Source: Pseudomonadota bacterium (lineage in GTDB: Bacteria; Bdellovibrionota_C; UBA2361; OMII01). From it: DNA of 64,000 nt. The notes under the pieces are model-generated. The model did not search any database, was not told the origin of the DNA, and was given only the letters and a program-made list of their open reading frames with translations. Below, in pieces: positions 17,430-24,376 of this stretch; the first letter of the stretch is position 1, and each line of letters begins with the position of its first letter. Made by a program: the position numbers and the translations under genes. The DNA lies in assembly GCA_027485595.1 (NCBI GenBank), contig JAIXQT010000185.1, forward strand, positions 727-64,726. Direction: 5' to 3'.

Positions 17430-19172
17430 CTATGAGCACCGGGAAGCTCGATCACTGCTCCTCATCTGCTCACAGTGCCACGCGCAGAACGCCTCCATCG
17501 TGCAGGATGATGAGAAGCCGATTTCTAGCGCGAGAGCCTGAAACGCCTCGGGGCAATCGCCGATCGTCAGCGCAACAGGGAGGCTCTTAAAGAACTGCCG
17601 ATTGAGCTCCCACAGCTCTTGCGAGAGCGCGACCTCCTCTTCAAGGGGTACACTCATTCGCCGCGAGTTTTGCACGTACGGGAGGAGATACGGCACCCTC
17701 GCGACTGCGCCACCGGGAAGCCGAACGACCAGCCCCCCCTCGCGGGAGCCCACAAGAAAGTCGCGAACATCCCCTGCCTCAACAAGCGCTTCTCCGGCCG
17801 AACACTCCACGGTACGAAGGCTCACCCCTTCGCACACCTCCTGAACTGAGATGACTCCCTCAATGTGGATCCGTTGCGGCAGGAGCTGACAAACCTCTCG
17901 GATCGTTCTCCCCGTCGCGATATCATCATCCATCAGTAGATAAGAACCATCGGGTATCGCCGCAATCTGAACACCCAGATCGGCTGATCCCGGGCGAGGA
18001 AAGATTCCGCTGAGGCGCTCACCACTGGTGACGTTAAACCTGCGTGAGATAGCGATCGAATGATCGCCATCGATACATGCGTCTAAGCTGATAACTGGGT
18101 GGTGCGAGCGAACAATTACCCCGTCCATGCGACGCCGTTGCTCGGAGAGGGAGACCCGCGTTACGGACACCGTGGCGTGTGGCATTCGCCGACGAAAGGC
18201 ACGCTCGAGTATCGTAGCGAGCGACCCAACGAACGCTCGTTGCGCCCACTCAAGGTCAACGCCAACGCGGGCACTCCACCCATCGGTGCTCCAGGCCTCT
18301 TCATCACGGAGAAAAAGTTCAACCTTCGTCGGCACCTTTGTCGCTTGAAGTGCACACAATTCCTGGCTGACCTTGGGAGGAAGCCCACCTGAGCGCCCTT
18401 TTCGGATGACACGAGAGGCGATTGCATTCGGAGTATGGTCGCGCGCCACAAACACCCTTTCTGACCGAGCAGCAAGGGGATCAAGCAAAGCCTCACCATC
18501 TGTGCCAGCGCGGGGTACGATAACGATACGACCGTGGTCAAGGAACGCTTTACTAAATCCTGCGTTATCGCCACCACACACAAAGAATATCTCGATGGGA
18601 TGACCAACTTGAAGGGTGAGGTAGCGTGAGAGTCTTCGCACGATATCCGTGTAATTCACGGCCCGGTCAAGGTAAAGTGCTGCCCACGGGTCGACATCGA
18701 GCCAGGTGCTTTCGCTTGTGGCGAGTCGTGCGAGATGGGTGCGTTCCGCGCCTGACAGTGCCTCCTCGCCACACTTAGTTCGTACGTACCCATCATGATC
18801 GGGGGCGAAGAATCCGCCGACGACCCGCCATCCCCGCTTCTCGACCTCGAGCCGCGCGCTCTCCATCATCGCTAGATGGCCGTTGTGGATCGGGCAAAAG
18901 CCCCCAGATGTTACAAGCACCGCAATCGGCTTGTTTGACTCGGCACCTACCTCGTTGATTGCGTCGCATATCTTGATGAGCGGAGTGACTAAGAGCCTGT
19001 CATCAACCGTCTTGGAGATGTCACAACCTACCGGCACCCCATCATCGAAGAAGCCAGCGGCCTCAAGATGCTCGGCGCCATATCTTATGAGCACCGATGC
19101 GTAGAACGGGTCGGCGCTCGCCTTCGCTATCACACGACTCGAAGCTCCCGCTCGATGTTTGACCATCCCCAT
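17430..19172 (-). CDS. fusion protein: NMNAT-type nucleotidyl(adenylyl)transferase domain plus type I phosphoribosyltransferase domain
   Basis: 580 aa. N-terminal half: VLVTSGGFCPIHNGHLAMM ((H/T)xGH motif) and AIASRVIR (ISSTxxR-like). C-terminal half: PRPP-binding loop SYLLMDDDIATGRTIRE. It is the last gene of the operon, 4 nt after the preceding stop. Confidence 0.75.
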   Translation of the reverse strand: MGMVKHRAGASSRVIAKASADPFYASVLIRYGAEHLEAAGFFDDGVPVGCDISKTVDDRLLVTPLIKICDAINEVGAESNKPIAVLVTSGGFCPIHNGHLAMMESARLEVEKRGWRVVGGFFAPDHDGYVRTKCGEEALSGAERTHLARLATSESTWLDVDPWAALYLDRAVNYTDIVRRLSRYLTLQVGHPIEIFFVCGGDNAGFSKAFLDHGRIVIVPRAGTDGEALLDPLAARSERVFVARDHTPNAIASRVIRKGRSGGLPPKVSQELCALQATKVPTKVELFLRDEEAWSTDGWSARVGVDLEWAQRAFVGSLATILERAFRRRMPHATVSVTRVSLSEQRRRMDGVIVRSHHPVISLDACIDGDHSIAISRRFNVTSGERLSGIFPRPGSADLGVQIAAIPDGSYLLMDDDIATGRTIREVCQLLPQRIHIEGVISVQEVCEGVSLRTVECSAGEALVEAGDVRDFLVGSREGGLVVRLPGGAVARVPYLLPYVQNSRRMSVPLEEEVALSQELWELNRQFFKSLPVALTIGDCPEAFQALALEIGFSSSCTMEAFCAWHCEQMRSSDRASRCS

Positions 19173-19176
19173 AGCG

Positions 19177-20934
19177 TTACCCCTTCATCACCCTCTCGAA
19201 CAGGACATCCGTTCGGATAATCACCTTAGGTGTCCTTCCGCTCCACGGCTCAGAGTCGTGGAGGAGCCTGTGATCAAAGATAAGTGCGCGCCCCGCTGTG
19301 GGCGTTACCGCTGCAATGACCTCCTCATCGCGGGCCTCACGCGTCCAATCCGAGAAGTCACGCGCCGCGTAGGGGAGCGAGAGCTGCGGATCCGTGATAA
19401 AGCGGGTTCGGCCCCCACAAGCGGGGTCGCACTCATTGAGGTAGAGGACGAGGCTCATCAAGGTATGGGTCGCGCCGTCACCTGGATTAAACCCGGCGTC
19501 GTAGTGAACGACGAGCTCCCCACCGTTCTCATACCAGATAAGGCGAAACGCGGGGTTCACCCCGACCGCGCGCCATACGGCGTGCCCGCCCCAATCGGTT
19601 GTCGCGTACTCATCGAAGGTGCGTGGGGAAGCAACGAATGGTGCCACCCGTTCCCACACCCGAGCAGCAAGCTCTGGGGAATAGACCGTCGCCCGCCATG
19701 AGCCCACCTGCGAAGTCCCAGTGGTGAAACCCTTCACGTATCCGTTCGTTCCAACGGGGATTCTGCGCTGACGCGATACCTCGCTGATCAACGCCTCACA
19801 TTCATGGTGGGAGAGTAGCCCCTCAATGACACGAGCCTCACCCCCAACGCCCTCTACGCTCTTTGAGAGGGGAGAAGGTCTCACTCGCTCAAATACGTTG
19901 AGCGGCACAAGGGGATTGAGGGGAAACTCCCCCACAAGTCTCCGCTCGGTGGGTGACACGGTATAGTTCCCCTCCTCTCTCCACCCGCCTGGGACGGCGC
20001 GCTCATAGAGACTCAGGTGCACTGAAGGGTTGCCCCCCACGTACTTGTGCAGATTATATCGGTGCATCTCCTCAATCCGCGCGCCCCATTCTTCAAACTG
20101 CCGGACGGCCCCAGGGGAAAGTGTGCGCACCGCCTCAGTACGCTCCTTCTCGCTCAGGCACAAAAGAGCCGTGTAGAGCTCAACGAAATCATACGGAGCC
20201 CCGATCATCTCAAGGTGGGTTTTCCCGTCGTAAACATCGCCCGTTGGTGCGGCGCCGAGCGTCCCCATCGGAACCTTCAAGAGCTCTCCAAGGCGATACA
20301 CCTCGCTCTTGTGGAGATCCGAGATGATCTGAAGATCCACCATCCCATCTGAGGCCTTCCCGAAGAACCCGAGGTAGCTCCCCTCGTCTCTATTCGTCGT
20401 TCCGCATACGATCGCGGGCGTTCCCGACGCGGAGAGAAGCGCTGAGAGATAGTAGAGAGCCGGAGTGCGAAGGTAGGCGACGAGCTGCCCGTCAGCCCAC
20501 GCGTTTCCCCGAAGATAGGAACTTTCGCTCACAGCACGGCGAGCTGCCTCAAAGGTCGCACTAAGGTCGGGAACAACAAACTCGGCGTTGAAGGCCTTCG
20601 CCACGGCTTTAGCTCGGTCACGCGCGCGATCCTGATCACTCGCCCCCTGATCAACAAAGAAGGGAAGCGATGCCGCAACGATTCGCGATATCGGCGATCC
20701 CTCCATCCGCGACGCGACACTCACAAGCCCCAGCACAACCGCAGAGTCGACGCCGCCACTTACCCCAACCACAAGCCCGGAAAGTTTGTGCACCCGGCAG
20801 TAGTTGTTAATGAGTTCAACTTTTCGAGCGAGGCACTCCGCGGCGTCGAAGCCACGCCTGGCGCGAATCTCGTGGAGCGCCGTAGCAAACTCCCCATTCA
20901 TCGTCTCGTTCATCTCATGTCGTGGAACTAACAT
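19177..20934 (-). CDS. fusion protein: NH3-dependent NAD+ synthetase (NadE-type PP-loop amidoligase) domain plus C-terminal 2OG-Fe(II) oxygenase (prolyl-4-hydroxylase-like) domain
   Basis: 585 aa. PP-loop VVGVSGGVDSAVV and NadE block GTTNRDEGSYLGFFGKASDGMVDLQIISDLHKSEVYRLG. C-terminal VVHYDAGF (HxD), SLVLYLNE..GGRTRF, ALIFDHRLLHDSEP (distal His) and VIIRTDVLF. Confidence 0.8.
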   Translation of the reverse strand: MLVPRHEMNETMNGEFATALHEIRARRGFDAAECLARKVELINNYCRVHKLSGLVVGVSGGVDSAVVLGLVSVASRMEGSPISRIVAASLPFFVDQGASDQDRARDRAKAVAKAFNAEFVVPDLSATFEAARRAVSESSYLRGNAWADGQLVAYLRTPALYYLSALLSASGTPAIVCGTTNRDEGSYLGFFGKASDGMVDLQIISDLHKSEVYRLGELLKVPMGTLGAAPTGDVYDGKTHLEMIGAPYDFVELYTALLCLSEKERTEAVRTLSPGAVRQFEEWGARIEEMHRYNLHKYVGGNPSVHLSLYERAVPGGWREEGNYTVSPTERRLVGEFPLNPLVPLNVFERVRPSPLSKSVEGVGGEARVIEGLLSHHECEALISEVSRQRRIPVGTNGYVKGFTTGTSQVGSWRATVYSPELAARVWERVAPFVASPRTFDEYATTDWGGHAVWRAVGVNPAFRLIWYENGGELVVHYDAGFNPGDGATHTLMSLVLYLNECDPACGGRTRFITDPQLSLPYAARDFSDWTREARDEEVIAAVTPTAGRALIFDHRLLHDSEPWSGRTPKVIIRTDVLFERVMKG

Positions 20935-20942
20935 ACTCCCTC

Positions 20943-21578
20943 CTAGTAAAATACGTGTGTAAGTCGTGCATGTGCCGCCCGATACGGTGAAGCGTTCATG
21001 ATGAGCGCCGCCTTTCGCTCCACCGCGCGGTAACGCTCCTCAAGTACCGACGTCACCTCTCGGGCCGTTGGAACCTCAGGCACCGAGATCTCCCCGAGCC
21101 GAGCAAGATTCCATGTGGCGACAAGGAGCGCGCACGTGGGTTCAAAAGGTCGAGCGGCGATACTTCCAAGTGCGACACCTCCCTCAGGTGTGTCGAGAAA
21201 GAGGACCCGCTTCGGCGCCCTGCGAAATGGCTCAAAGTAGAGCCTCCGTCGTGGAAGCGTGGCGATTAAACGTTTGGCGGCATGTATGAGCGAGCTTTCG
21301 TTCACTACCGTATCGACCGAGTGGCCGCACATCGTCACGCCACGCCGTATCTCATGGGGCGTGAGCGCTGCGCGAGTTACGTGAATATCATCAAGTAATA
21401 CAAGCGACCGGACCGTCTTTCCGCTCTCTTGAAGTCGCCGCGCTACACGTTTGGCGATGGCGACGCTCTCACTGTGCCGCTCGGTGAACGACTCATCCGC
21501 GTAGACGTGCGCGCATTCGATACTCACATCACAACTCACCATCACTCCCTCCGCATCGAAAAGCCACCAGGTCATCAC
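20943..21578 (-). CDS. hypothetical protein (operon ORFan)
   Basis: 211-aa ORF overlapping the upstream gene end by 50 nt, or 14 nt if it starts at 21542. It contains a degenerate PRPP-loop-like string SLVLLDDIHVTRAAL, which is only weak evidence. Confidence 0.55.
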   Translation of the reverse strand: MMTWWLFDAEGVMVSCDVSIECAHVYADESFTERHSESVAIAKRVARRLQESGKTVRSLVLLDDIHVTRAALTPHEIRRGVTMCGHSVDTVVNESSLIHAAKRLIATLPRRRLYFEPFRRAPKRVLFLDTPEGGVALGSIAARPFEPTCALLVATWNLARLGEISVPEVPTAREVTSVLEERYRAVERKAALIMNASPYRAAHARLTHVFY

Positions 21579-22485
21579 CGCTCACCGTCAATCGGTCGAA
21601 GGTAACTGGATCTTGTAAGAGCTCGAGCGAGGTAGCCCCCTTATCAGTGAGCGCCCGCCGCAAACTCACCGCCACCTGCCGAACAAAGCTCATGACATGC
21701 GTTAACTTCAGAGCACGGTGGGTGAAGCTGGGGTAGTCGAGGAGCGCCACGATCCCACCGGGTCGAACCGATGCAACAAGGGTATCCGCGAGAGCAGGAA
21801 CGACGCGATCGATGAGCGAGGCATCGGTTACTATCTCATCCCACACCGCGGCGTATCGCTCTTCGCACGCATACAGCGGCCCAACCTCAACTCCCCGACG
21901 AGCGCAGTAGGAAGAGAGGATCAGATCATCGAGGAGGTGGTTCCCGAACAGAGCGTCGAACCGTGCGGGTGGAGTCTCCGAGAGTGCACCCCTTCGTGTC
22001 GTAGCGTGACCCCGCGCTCCAACGAGCAAAAGAAATCTCGCCGCGTGTGAAAGAGCCTCCGCGTCGGTATCAATAAGCTCAATAGTCCCAGCGAACCCGG
22101 CATAGTGCAGCCCACAGGCCACCTTCGGCACATACCCGCATCCTACCTCAGCGACCCGTCCGTCTTGGGGCAGCTCGATCTGTTGCAGAATCTCCCGCCA
22201 CACCTGCCCTACCGACCAGTAGAAGGTTAGATCGAGGAACAGCTCCTCGGTGCGCTCCGGTATACGGAGCAGATTGCGAGGTGTGAATGAGCTCTGCCGA
22301 TATTCGCGAGAGACGAGGCGACGAGTCGCTCGCGAGAGATCGCCGATGAACCGCTCAACTTCAACCGGGTCATACCTTCGGCTTCGACCGATCCGTACGG
22401 CCCGAGCCGCGGCTCGCCCAAGGCACGCACTCAGCGACGACGTGACCTGCCCACCAGAACACTTCAGTTGACCTATGCCGCCCAT
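21529..22485 (-). CDS. class I SAM-dependent methyltransferase-like protein
   Basis: 318 aa. Motif I-like VAEVGCGYVPKVACGL followed by an acidic IELIDTD. The start overlaps the ATP-grasp stop by 13 nt. Confidence 0.6.
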   Translation of the reverse strand: MGGIGQLKCSGGQVTSSLSACLGRAAARAVRIGRSRRYDPVEVERFIGDLSRATRRLVSREYRQSSFTPRNLLRIPERTEELFLDLTFYWSVGQVWREILQQIELPQDGRVAEVGCGYVPKVACGLHYAGFAGTIELIDTDAEALSHAARFLLLVGARGHATTRRGALSETPPARFDALFGNHLLDDLILSSYCARRGVEVGPLYACEERYAAVWDEIVTDASLIDRVVPALADTLVASVRPGGIVALLDYPSFTHRALKLTHVMSFVRQVAVSLRRALTDKGATSLELLQDPVTFDRLTVSGDDLVAFRCGGSDGEL

Positions 22486-23504
22486 GCCGCATCCCTCCTT
22501 CCGCCTATCGTCTCAGGAAAGATCATGTCCACGATCATCGAGGCCACGTTTCGTGGTCGCCCTCTCCCTGGCGCCATGTGGATCCCGATCCCAGGAACTG
22601 AGTTGATCTCAAGCACTCGATACGAATCCCCATCCTGCTTCTCTCGGATATCTCCGCACATAAAGTCGATACCGGCATAGGGGAGCCCGGGAATGGACGC
22701 GAGTGCCCGGTTGCAGATCTCTATCACCGATGGATGCGCGAGCTCGGTCACATCCGTTGGCACACCCCCCTTCTTTACATTCGAGCTTCCACGCAGATAG
22801 ACCTTCTCTCCAAGGCGGGGCACGGAGGAGAATGAGAGCCCCTGGCGCTTCAGATGCTGGGAAGCCTCACCATCAAGTGCGATCGGACAGAGGCAATTGA
22901 TTCTTGGGTGCGCCCGTCGGTAGCTCTCCCACGTGGCGAGGAGCTCTATTGAGTGAGCACCATCGCCGATGACGTGCGCGGGATCCCGGTGGAGCACAGC
23001 GAACCGACCTCGCGCAGTGAGAAACACTCGAAACTCGTGTCCCGTGAAGTGCTCCTCAACGATCACCTCCTGATTGCCAGATTCGTTCACGATCGCCTGA
23101 ACCGCCGCGCGTACCTCTTCGACGCTTTCAAGGCCCGTAAATACGTTTTCCCCCTGCACACCGAAGCTGGGCTTAACCACAACTGGAAAGCCAAGTGTGC
23201 GCTCCGCGTAGAGAGCTACCTCATCGACCGCTTCGGTCGGAAAATGATGCCCGCGGGGAATTCGCACTCCGGCTCTCTGAAGGAGACGTTTCGTGAGGGA
23301 TTTACTCCCAGCGATAACCGAAGCGGTGTAGGGTACGATGGAGCTATCTATATCCGAGAAGAGCTCTCGATGATCGCCGTAGGTAGCCTCGAGTATCTCA
23401 TTGGTTCGATCAAAGAGGGTTACCTCGATACCGCGGAACATAAGCTCTTGGGCTAGGAACCTCTGATTCGCTCGAAGTTCGGAAACGTTGAAGACCTCTC
23501 GCAT
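22473..23504 (-). CDS. ATP-grasp ligase (cyanophycin synthetase N-domain / GshF-like type)
   Basis: 343 aa. FPVVVKPSFGVQGENVF, VIVEEHFTGHEFRVF, SSNVKKGGVPTDVTELAHP and YRVLEINSVPGI are characteristic ATP-grasp blocks. Confidence 0.8.
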   Translation of the reverse strand: MREVFNVSELRANQRFLAQELMFRGIEVTLFDRTNEILEATYGDHRELFSDIDSSIVPYTASVIAGSKSLTKRLLQRAGVRIPRGHHFPTEAVDEVALYAERTLGFPVVVKPSFGVQGENVFTGLESVEEVRAAVQAIVNESGNQEVIVEEHFTGHEFRVFLTARGRFAVLHRDPAHVIGDGAHSIELLATWESYRRAHPRINCLCPIALDGEASQHLKRQGLSFSSVPRLGEKVYLRGSSNVKKGGVPTDVTELAHPSVIEICNRALASIPGLPYAGIDFMCGDIREKQDGDSYRVLEINSVPGIGIHMAPGRGRPRNVASMIVDMIFPETIGGRRDAAWAA

Positions 23505-23507
23505 GAC

Positions 23508-24092
23508 TCACCCTCCTGTGTTTCGATAGCCACCCGATCTACTTTCGCCACACGAAGATGGGGTACTCCTTGATGAACTAACCACCCGGGCGCGGGCGCG
23601 CTTCTCGAACTCCTTGCCAATAAGCTCAATCAACTCCTCCCGTCGTGCGCGTTCCGGTTCGGTAAGGCCTCCAGCGGAGTCCTTCATGCGAAGGTTGCTG
23701 TACTCATCGAGTAACTCGACCGGAGCGCTCAGCGATCGAAGTGTGAGTGCCTTGCCTGAGACTGCCACCGGGGTTCTTACAAGAACGACCTCCTCGATGC
23801 CGGGGACATCGCGAACACGAACTCTCGTGCCATCATCTCGAGGCTCTATCGAGAGGATCTTTGAAAGGTCACTCGGACGGTAGGCAACTACCCCTGTGGT
23901 TGATTCTGAGATGAGGAGCGAACTTCCCTTGAGGTGGAAGAGGTAGCTCTTGCCTTTGGGAAGCTCGAGGGGAAGCGCTTCGATCACACGAGCGGCGCTC
24001 TCACGCGATCCCCCCAGCCAGTAGTGGTCCCCTGGGGCTCGTGTCACAATGGTTGTCACGTTATCAAACTGCGCGTTTGTCGCTCCTCTCAT
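23508..24092 (-). CDS. hypothetical protein (first gene of the operon)
   Basis: The ORF track starts at the TTG at 24152. The ATG at 24092 is preceded by AGGGGGAAGGG. The stop lies 3 nt before the ATP-grasp start. No motif recognised. Confidence 0.55.
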   Translation of the reverse strand: MRGATNAQFDNVTTIVTRAPGDHYWLGGSRESAARVIEALPLELPKGKSYLFHLKGSSLLISESTTGVVAYRPSDLSKILSIEPRDDGTRVRVRDVPGIEEVVLVRTPVAVSGKALTLRSLSAPVELLDEYSNLRMKDSAGGLTEPERARREELIELIGKEFEKRARARVVSSSRSTPSSCGESRSGGYRNTGG

Positions 24093-24376
24093 ACCCTTCC
24101 CCCTCATGTGAGAGCTCAGAACACTCTGACTCTTGAGAACCACTATGTTCAAATTAATACTAGGCAGCTACTACGTGTATCGATTACCAGGAAACAGAGC
24201 GCAGAATGCGCATCGGTTCACAACACGGCGCATAACGCTCCAGACGCAAAGGATAGTTGGGAAACCCCTTTGAGCATCGAGTCCTACCGCGCCGAGTGAA
24301 AAGAGCTTATTTTCAGACGAAAAATGGCCGGTTCGTTCTCCCATTCCTCTCTCGAGGCGCATCTGCACTGACGAGA

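Follow-up and report, generated by a model that had tools for sequence, protein, structure and literature searches.

What does a protein do that joins a nicotinamide mononucleotide/nicotinic acid mononucleotide (NMN/NaMN) adenylyltransferase (NMNAT) to a phosphoribosyltransferase (PRTase)-like domain? The question is raised by an uninterrupted open reading frame (ORF) of 580 amino acids (aa), designated P0001, at positions 17430 to 19172 on the reverse strand of a 64,000-nucleotide stretch of DNA (the window; contig JAIXQT010000185.1 of assembly GCA_027485595.1, positions 727 to 64,726) from a Pseudomonadota bacterium (GTDB lineage Bacteria; Bdellovibrionota_C; UBA2361; OMII01). Few biological pathways have been mapped as well as NAD biosynthesis. 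The present analysis reveals that P0001 is a member of a conserved, uncharacterised two-enzyme fusion family, and the assignment of its two halves as NMNAT and PRTase-like domains is very probably correct. Together with a NadE-type NAD synthetase encoded beside it, the fusion probably forms a self-contained, accessory, Preiss-Handler-like NAD assembly line.

Domain architecture of the fusion protein

A search of 5.8 billion proteins retrieved 79 relatives of P0001, almost all of them full-length and with identities down to about 30%, which the source databases label as nicotinic acid mononucleotide adenylyltransferase or as hypothetical. Conservation was read from an alignment of 33 full-length homologues with 30 to 60% identity. 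An AlphaFold2 model of P0001 built from the family alignment forms one compact body, with a predicted local distance difference test (pLDDT) score of 91.9 and a predicted TM-score (pTM) of 0.91. The following features, all on the reverse strand, were delimited in the ORF, with PRPP standing for phosphoribosyl pyrophosphate.

17430..19172, reverse strand: whole ORF P0001 (580 aa), with N-terminal extension, NMNAT-like domain and PRTase-like domain
18939..19172, reverse strand: N-terminal extension, residues 1-78, with conserved AGFFDDG and TP motifs (33-homologue alignment)
18357..18938, reverse strand: predicted eukaryote-type NMN/NaMN adenylyltransferase domain, residues 79-272 (Pfam, PDB search, Foldseek)
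18876..18905, reverse strand: GGFCPIHNGH, the (H/T)xGH ATP-binding motif, residues 90-99 (string found; alignment)
18402..18422, reverse strand: IASRVIR, the ISSTxxR-type motif, residues 251-257 (string found; alignment)
17733..18326, reverse strand: predicted divergent type I PRTase-like core, residues 283-480 (a strand with RDE, two long helices and a Rossmann-like sheet)
17904..17948, reverse strand: PRPP-binding loop GSYLLMDDDIATGRT, residues 409-423 (string found; alignment)
17451..17732, reverse strand: family-specific C-terminal subdomain, residues 481-574 (two short strands, 481-484 and 490-493, and helices)

Residues 79 to 272 are predicted, from sequence and model together, to be an NMN/NaMN adenylyltransferase domain of the eukaryotic type. 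The domain passes the Pfam cut-off for the cytidylyltransferase-like family PF01467 (23.5 bits, cut-off 21), and its sole NCBIfam match, the bacterial nadD equivalog TIGR00482 (E 1.5e-9), scores 38 bits, which is far under the cut-off of 112. All seven phmmer matches in the PDB with E < 0.001 are eukaryotic NMN/NaMN adenylyltransferases, the best being that of A. thaliana (9rpk, E 4.7e-11) and the others including human NMNAT3 and NMNAT1 and the C. thermophilum enzyme. When the full model was searched with Foldseek, the top 50 PDB matches were all NMN/NaMN adenylyltransferases, with the eukaryotic enzymes (human, plant and fungal) ranked first (E 5e-11, TM-score 0.70 to 0.81 on the target) and bacterial NadD after them. 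The N-terminal half thus fits NMNATs, and not the glycerol-3-phosphate cytidylyltransferases or pantetheine-phosphate adenylyltransferases that an earlier reading of the DNA letters, made without database searches (the sequence-only reading), had named as competing assignments. The HxGH and ISSTxxR-like motifs on which that reading had relied are both present. G90, P94, H96, G98 and H99 of the former and S253 and R257 of the latter are kept in 33 of the 33 homologues. In addition, FAPDHDGYVRTK and WLDVDPW of P0001 align to plant and human NMNATs, and the motif residues P124, D127, Y129, K133, W157, D161 and W163 are invariant in the family, so that the family-invariant motifs read GxFxPxHxGH, [SA]PxHDxYxxxK, WLxVDPW and ISSxxxR. 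We take SPxxDxY..K and WxxDPW to be mononucleotide-site motifs, with residue roles presumed from knowledge of solved NMNATs.

The C-terminal 300 residues or so are predicted, again from sequence and model, to be a very divergent type I PRTase-like domain that keeps the PRPP loop and a set of invariant arginines. In the loop YLLMDDDIATGRT, D416, D417 and G421 are kept in all 33 homologues and T423 in 32 of them; with such invariance, neither this loop nor the two NMNAT motifs can be chance strings. Residues from about 283 to 400 carry invariant R289, D364, R377 and R393, and residues 481 to 574 carry invariant R492, P494, Y495, P498, R505 and N524. The latter segment is a candidate base-binding or 'hood' part; when the hood or base-binding part, the pyrophosphate loop and the catalytic loop were looked for, the conserved subdomain and the invariant arginines were seen and are not equatable with the canonical elements. 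Modelled separately, residues 285 to 580 reach a pLDDT of 94.5.

Residues 285 to 580 have no significant match to a Pfam, NCBIfam, PHROG or PADLOC model. Only 3 of the 33 family members match the PRTase family PF00156 at E values up to 1, and the weak matches of single members to PF00156, UPRTase or PRTase_2 have E values of 0.008 to 0.14. The family profile matched adenine PRTase (APRT) in the PDB at the PRPP loop (E 0.037), and hhalign pairs this loop with that of the PyrE encoded in the window itself. Foldseek of the separate model gave weak matches to HGPRT, PyrR and APRT at E values of about 0.05. In a VIA-align comparison with 48,161 chains, the top 25 rows or so are almost all type I PRTases or PRPP synthetases, with Z values of 5.5 to 7.0 and 97 to 131 aligned residues spanning model residues 1 to about 195. 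These matches support a five-stranded Rossmann-like PRTase core in the domain, at moderate Z values, which gain weight because the matches are uniform and the PRPP motif is present. The whole fold of residues 285 to 580 (about 270 residues) recurs in the ESM Atlas at TM-scores of 0.76 to 0.85, in stand-alone proteins of 290 to 420 aa, in one cluster with PF00156 in 14% of its members and in haloacid dehalogenase (HAD)-phosphatase fusions of the Candidate Phyla Radiation (CPR). The language-model neighbours of the domain carry PRTase names.

Both domain calls of the sequence-only reading therefore hold, supported by sequence, Foldseek and VIA-align, and the structure prediction that it had proposed as a check places a PRTase-like core in the C-terminal half (VIA-align Z 5.5 to 7.0), so that a lack of the PRTase fold was not seen. 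Its 'canonical type I PRPP loop' is borne out for the loop itself, which is invariant in the family; the PRTase is not canonical, with only the loop and the core fold matching. The N-terminal, central and C-terminal regions in which it had recognised no motif are real, and yet all three are conserved and modelled with pLDDT above 90. Its 'linker' and 'tail' are not unassigned spacers; they are parts of one conserved, confidently folded domain of about 300 residues built on the PRTase core. The Cys-rich tail that it described exists in P0001 and is not a family trait. A metal site in this tail was considered and rejected, since C563 (26 of 33) is the one cysteine that the family widely keeps, unlike C557, C567 and C579.

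The N-terminal extension has a nearly invariant AGFFDDG motif and an invariant G40, and its pLDDT is 84 to 95 except for residues 1 to 9. It is kept in forms fused to NadE or to an oxygenase, and in P0062 it was seen after the oxygenase domain. Many distant homologues of about 565 to 630 aa, jumbo-phage ones included, have an extra N-terminal segment of 40 to 50 residues that is absent from P0001 (examples are P0031, P0036, P0049, P0052 and P0066).

Size, architectures and distribution of the family

A profile search of 1.84 billion representative proteins found 1,139 clusters that carry the PRTase-like domain, and the fusion family comprises at least 1,100 sequence clusters. Architectures, assigned by length and Pfam content, were as follows, with 2OG standing for the 2-oxoglutarate-Fe(II) oxygenase domain.

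NMNAT-PRT: about 560-640 aa
PRTase-like domain alone: about 300 aa, with complete genes confirmed in loci L104-L106
NadE-NMNAT-PRT: 855-883 aa
2OG-NMNAT-PRT: 846 aa
NadE-2OG-NMNAT-PRT: about 1,130-1,210 aa
HAD-fused PRTase-like domain: in CPR and in the genus of the window

NadE is fused to NMNAT-PRT in P0083, P0085, P0097, P0120 and P0168. Because natural fusions join them, NadE, the oxygenase, the NMNAT and the PRTase-like domain can be regarded as one functional unit. Two genes from the genus of the window (L107:4935-6782 and L108:3335-5338) encode proteins of 615 to 667 aa in which part of the PRTase-like domain is joined to a HAD (Hydrolase_3) phosphatase. They adjoin either an inosine-uridine nucleoside hydrolase gene or genes for a PfkB kinase and a 2H phosphoesterase. 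The HAD-fused form thus stands in a riboside/ribose salvage context, and the fusion and its nucleoside hydrolase or PfkB neighbours agree with synthesis of a nucleoside 5'-phosphate by the domain.

The fusion was found on contigs of Bdellovibrionota, Myxococcota, several CPR lineages, Melainabacteria, Chthonomonadales, Actinomycetota (Acidimicrobiia), gut Clostridia and Bacilli, and Leptospira, with the closest homologues in Bdellovibrionota (51 to 56% identity). In addition, 16 viral contigs in IMG/VR carry the fusion. Most of them are 180 to 465 kb long, and 11 of the 16 exceed 180 kb; among five that were examined, two have direct terminal repeats and all five have one or two NadE genes. 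A tblastn search of 50,697 GenBank phage records gave no match to P0001, and neither PADLOC nor PHROGs holds a family for it. Within the genus of the window, a full-length homologue (53 to 56% identity) is limited to 3 of 24 other species, and within the order 1 of 16 other genera has a homologue. This sporadic occurrence, together with the higher G+C content of the operon described below, indicates that the gene is accessory and probably horizontally mobile.

The NadE partner and the genomic context

P0001 is the last gene of a row of six co-directional genes (17430-24152), which encode, in order, a 214-aa unknown protein, an ATP-grasp ligase, a 318-aa methyltransferase-like protein, a 211-aa protein (g4), a NadE-2OG protein (P0002) and P0001. 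The ATG of P0001 sits 4 nucleotides past the stop codon of the P0002 gene. Two of its companions recur with the fusion elsewhere.

19177..20934, reverse strand: P0002, NadE-type NAD synthetase fused to a 2OG-Fe(II) oxygenase (Pfam, NCBIfam)
20943..21578, reverse strand: g4, 211-aa protein, companion of the fusion in Bdellovibrionota-type operons, jumbo phages and locus L099

P0002 matches PF02540 (3e-24) and PF13640 (3e-7), and matches TIGR00552 above its cut-off; its NadE part has no glutaminase domain. A complex prediction of P0001 with the NadE domain of P0002 (residues 1-334) scored 0.00, which is uninformative on binding either way. In a tblastn survey of 101 loci, NadE adjoins the fusion in 88. 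Among these 88, a 2OG oxygenase alone is present in 58, a radical S-adenosylmethionine (SAM) enzyme alone in 27, neither in 3 and both in none; the lineages of the radical-SAM loci are not independent, being mostly Firmicutes with three CPR genomes and one phage. Two radical-SAM families occur at the fusion loci, and one of them is near the archaeosine enzyme RaSEA (196 bits, cut-off 212). The split suggests aerobic and anaerobic solutions to one extra step.

Recurrent neighbours were identified by clustering all neighbouring ORFs. NrtR, a Nudix-type NAD regulator (PMC2330246), is found in 9 loci, and a NadV-type nicotinate phosphoribosyltransferase (NAPRTase) gene (NF006629, 549 to 595 bits) adjoins the module in 4. 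PncA and PncB genes lie beside the module in a Saccharibacteria genome (L073). A gene of the Asp/Glu/hydantoin-racemase family stands directly beside NadE in 8 loci from CPR and other bacteria (L002, L003, L021, L035, L073, L074, L076 and L078). The operon of the window itself contains no NrtR, NadV, PncA or PncB gene. The NadE partner and the NrtR, NadV and PncA/PncB neighbours tie the fusion to NAD, and a role in NAD-type nucleotide metabolism is accordingly likely.

In gut Clostridia and Bacilli metagenome-assembled genomes (MAGs), the module lies in a conserved operon of 8 to 9 genes (loci L027-L079; for example, L038:3699-13137). This Firmicutes operon encodes a diaminopimelate-decarboxylase-like pyridoxal phosphate (PLP) enzyme, a MoaA/viperin-like radical-SAM enzyme, NadE, NMNAT-PRT and a GNAT protein that is sometimes fused to NMNAT-PRT, as well as a SPASM-type radical-SAM enzyme, a 617-aa unknown protein, one or two proteins of about 100 aa and a 253-aa protein that resembles the 318-aa gene product of the window. 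In another locus (L005:1-7592), the module lies beside genes for two large NTPases of the STAND type (AAA_35), and the first NTPase carries a TIR domain as well; it is possible that these are NAD-consuming immune proteins.

The g4 protein has a weak NCBIfam match to SCO2522_fam (E 0.005), and the invariant residues of its family are E21, H24, Y26, D63, D64, E94, C149, W156, R160 and E187. The family was found in 11 loci, and six of these (L086-L090 and L092) are contigs of jumbo phages. A g4 profile had no match in the PDB, and a feature search of the ESM Atlas returned only thioesterase leads at 0.82, inside the noise range. In L106, a stand-alone PRTase-like gene is followed by one for a protein with a faint SCO2522-family match.

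Downstream of the row lie ordinary chromosomal genes (lepB, a ygfZ-like gene and pyrE). This copy of P0001 is chromosomal, located between lepB and a Memo-like gene, and there are no phage genes around it. The G+C content is 0.58 to 0.59 across the operon region (window positions 18000-24000) and 0.52 to 0.55 in the flanks, which is consistent with acquired DNA. A promoter and terminator scan gave no signal above shuffled expectation, and Rfam searches around the operon and in 8 Firmicutes loci detected neither an NAD riboswitch nor any other element.

NAD genes in the carrier genomes

The genome to which the window belongs is 3.6 Mb long and 95.6% complete, and it contains three NadE-type and three NMNAT-type genes. 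Its canonical set comprises nadC and a glutamine-dependent NadE with NadD. An additional cluster encodes NadE, a PncA-like isochorismatase, an NAD-kinase-like protein, a Nudix-NadD fusion and a helix-turn-helix (HTH) protein. These two NadE loci lie at C77:3171-5767 (L102) and C156:21-5986 (L103). No gene of the NAPRTase family was found in this genome, though a PncA-like gene is present. The module is therefore accessory here, extra to the canonical NAD genes, and is best seen as a horizontally mobile additional NAD supply.

Two CPR genomes present a different picture. In a Shapirobacteria genome (G006, locus L023), the module holds the sole NadE and the sole cytidylyltransferase-like match. 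In a Microgenomates genome (G002, locus L013), the sole NadE match is that of the module, and the one other cytidylyltransferase-like match is a 168-aa ORF, so that the module holds the only plausible NMNAT-like match. Neither genome has a match to NAPRTase, quinolinate phosphoribosyltransferase (QPRTase), PnuC or PncA. Since no other route to the mononucleotide is seen in either, the PRTase-like domain is the only visible source there. If the two assemblies are near complete, the module must make an essential cofactor in these organisms.

Proposed function and alternative explanations

The sequence-only reading had suggested that the fusion would make a base-ribose-phosphate and then adenylylate it, and this chemistry is consistent with the genomic context. 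In the proposed scheme, the PRTase-like domain would join a pyridine base to PRPP to give a mononucleotide, a step suggested by the fold, the invariant residues, the fusions and the missing-gene argument. As NadE needs a carboxylate, the simplest base to propose is nicotinate. The mononucleotide would be handed to the NMNAT half and adenylylated with ATP to a dinucleotide, for which homology provides good support. NadE would then amidate the carboxylate to yield NAD+, as homology and context suggest. The scheme as a whole, from base and PRPP through the pyridine mononucleotide and its adenylylation to amidation by NadE, is given an even chance of being right.

Several observations weigh against it. 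Structurally, the domain resembles type I PRTases no more than moderately, with Z values that reach 7 at most and a Foldseek E value of about 0.05, and it scores 12.3 bits against PF00156, under the gathering cut-off of 26.3. The nicotinate, nicotinamide and quinolinate PRTases known so far are type II enzymes, and to our knowledge no type I PRTase uses a pyridine base. The argument from CPR is built on MAGs of unstated completeness. NAPRTase-family or QPRTase matches were found in 31 of 37 other genomes checked, the genome of the window has nadC, PncB or NadV is sometimes right beside the module, and 4 of the 5 viral contigs examined have a NAPRTase elsewhere in the genome, which points to redundancy. 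No anti-correlation of the module with PncB, NadV or NadC was found, and only 6 of the 37 other genomes lack both families. With conventional NAPRTase and QPRTase so widespread, the PRTase-like domain would often be redundant if nicotinate is its base. In addition, a plain Preiss-Handler scheme does not account for the strict pairing of the module with either a 2OG oxygenase or a radical-SAM enzyme, and the ATP-grasp ligase, the methyltransferase-like protein and the two unknowns in the operon could carry out further tailoring.

These last points lead to the idea that the module makes a modified or non-canonical dinucleotide instead of ordinary NAD, through another heterocyclic carboxylate base or a later modification. 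NMNAT-PRT would then build a scaffold, which the oxygenase or radical-SAM enzyme, the ATP-grasp ligase and the methyltransferase-like protein would tailor into a cofactor, a signal or a natural product. The occurrence of a 2OG oxygenase or a radical-SAM enzyme, never both, in 85 of the 88 NadE loci agrees with this, as do the four extra genes of the window operon and those of gut Firmicutes (two radical-SAM enzymes, a PLP decarboxylase-like enzyme, GNAT and the 617-aa unknown), the full set of canonical NAD genes in the host and the sporadic occurrence of the gene within the genus. However, NrtR, NadV, PncA and PncB as neighbours indicate NAD itself, the NMN-binding motifs of the NMNAT are intact, the core of the module is constant while the extra genes vary by lineage, and the only NadE/NMNAT set of two CPR genomes should yield an essential cofactor, so that a modified product is considered unlikely. 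The redundancy with conventional enzymes, sometimes encoded beside the module, could also mean that the C-terminal domain is not a base PRTase and that ordinary PncB, NadV or NadC supplies the mononucleotide. The loop for PRPP or ribose 5-phosphate would then be kept for another purpose, such as control of the NMNAT half in response to sensed PRPP, NaMN or ADP-ribose, or for another phosphoribosyl or pyrophosphoryl reaction, for example, one like that of PRPP synthetase or of Adps in NARP1. The best structural matches include PRPP synthetases (3mbi, Z 6.7), the non-catalytic PRTase-fold regulators PyrR and PurR also occur among the matches, and PRPP-synthetase (PRS)-like genes partner NAMPT-like genes in NARP1 (10.1101/2024.02.11.579819; PMC13586617). 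Set against this are the invariant charged residues R289, D364, R377, R393, D468, D471, R492 and R505, which a polyphosphate-binding catalytic site would be expected to have, and the presence of one PRTase-like core, where PRPP synthetase and Adps have two. The HAD-phosphatase fusions likewise suggest a nucleotide product, and no other mononucleotide source is seen in the CPR genomes G002 and G006. A non-PRTase role for the domain is thus also judged improbable.

A further proposal concerns the role of the cassette whatever its chemistry, namely that it rebuilds or protects the NAD pool in conflict and is not a housekeeping system. In giant phages it would serve as counter-defence against NAD-depleting immunity, and in predators, epibionts and hosts it would provide resistance to NAD depletion. 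The 16 mostly large viral contigs, two of the five examined having direct terminal repeats, fit such a role, and the phages examined carry NadE (5 of 5) and NAPRTase (4 of 5) as well; NAD reconstitution by phages and NAD gene clusters of jumbo phages have been published (10.1101/2024.02.11.579819; PMC13464706; PMC11662467). The patchy, accessory occurrence in the genus, the raised G+C content of the operon and the TIR-STAND gene beside the homologue in L005 point the same way. The absence of P0001 matches from PADLOC, PHROGs and GenBank phages argues otherwise, as do the chromosomal setting of this copy, with lepB and the Memo-like gene and no phage genes around it, and the housekeeping appearance of the module in CPR genomes. 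A conflict role is accordingly regarded as tentative and rather less than likely. Finally, the module may be a so far unrecognised way of making NAD that combines two new chemistries, a type I-fold pyridine PRTase fused to NMNAT and the formation of the amide from a donor other than ammonia or glutamine. The type I-fold PRTase would be a non-orthologous replacement of the type II enzymes PncB, NadV and NadC, with the fusion to NMNAT for product hand-over. The glutaminase-less NadE would load a nitrogen donor, for example, an amino acid, onto the carboxylate, and oxidative cleavage would then release the donor, with the fused 2OG oxygenase acting in aerobes and a radical-SAM enzyme (RaSEA-like in CPR) acting in anaerobes, by analogy with peptide alpha-amidation or archaeosine formation. 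This combination is speculative and quite improbable.

Comparison with known systems

The known pathway logic of NAD synthesis is carried here by an undescribed domain and architecture. The NMNAT half shares its fold (TM-score 0.70 to 0.81) and its GxFxPxHxGH, SPxxDxYxK-like, WxxDPW and ISSTxxR-like motifs with eukaryotic NMNATs (human NMNAT1/3, 1kku and 1nup; A. thaliana NaMNAT, 9rpk; C. thermophilum, 9iw1), at 21 to 25% identity over about 220 residues. Unlike these enzymes, P0001 has a 78-residue N-terminal extension and a 300-residue PRTase-like domain and belongs to a bacterial and phage-borne family. With the type I PRTases (OPRT, HGPRT, APRT and UPRT; PF00156) and PRPP synthetase, the C-terminal domain shares a Rossmann-like core and a loop of four hydrophobic residues, DD and xxTGxT; it differs from type I PRTases in its long N-terminal helices, its own 95-residue C-terminal subdomain and a score below the Pfam threshold.

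The order of phosphoribosylation, adenylylation and amidation proposed for the module is that of the Preiss-Handler pathway (PncB, NadD and NadE), and NadE is the constant partner of the fusion. However, the proposed first step would fall to a type I-like domain, in one protein with the second enzyme, instead of a type II PncB, and the NadE of the module lacks a glutaminase and has a 2OG oxygenase domain or a radical-SAM neighbour. Clusters of pncB, nadD and nadE occur in jumbo phages (PMC11662467).

Phages also encode other proteins in which an NMNAT is joined to a second NAD-related domain, namely NadM-Nudix (NatV of phage KVP40, NARP2) and NadR (NARP3, PMC13464706). In P0001 a PRTase-like domain takes the place of the Nudix hydrolase or ribosylnicotinamide kinase, the NMNAT belongs to the eukaryotic and not to the NadM or NadR type, and NadE is needed as a partner. 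NARP1, which consists of the PRPP-synthetase-like Adps and Namat, likewise uses a PRTase-fold protein in rebuilding NAD (10.1101/2024.02.11.579819; PMC13586617), and a NAMPT-like gene lies near the module in L049, L055, L074 and L099. P0001 differs from Adps in having a single PRTase-like core instead of the two-domain PRS architecture, and NARP1 requires neither the NMNAT to which this core is fused nor the NadE with which P0001 is paired. The gene pairs of the NARP systems are Adps and Namat, Nampt and NMNAT-Nudix, and PnuC and NadR (10.1101/2024.02.11.579819; PMC13464706). Membership of P0001 in NARP1 to NARP3 was considered and rejected, since the genome of the window has no Namat/NAPRTase/NAMPT-family gene and P0001 lacks Nudix and kinase domains. 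Published surveys of viral NAD systems and of NAD gene clusters in jumbo phages include pncB-nadD-nadE clusters and describe no PRTase-like fusion (PMC9503650; PMC11662467). Our literature searches for the fusion found the jumbo-phage NAD clusters and NARP1 to NARP3 and no description of it.

Biological implications

The fusion and its C-terminal domain, which occur in many phyla and in giant phages, have neither a Pfam family nor a solved structure. If the domain is a pyridine PRTase, it would represent a new enzyme class for a textbook reaction and would fill a hole in the NAD metabolism of some CPR bacteria; otherwise, an NAD module harbours a conserved step that is new to science. The rule that the NadE partner comes with either an oxygenase or a radical-SAM enzyme hints at chemistry outside the textbook pathway. 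The presence of the fusion in jumbo phages makes it a candidate for a further viral means of rebuilding NAD against NAD-depleting bacterial immunity.

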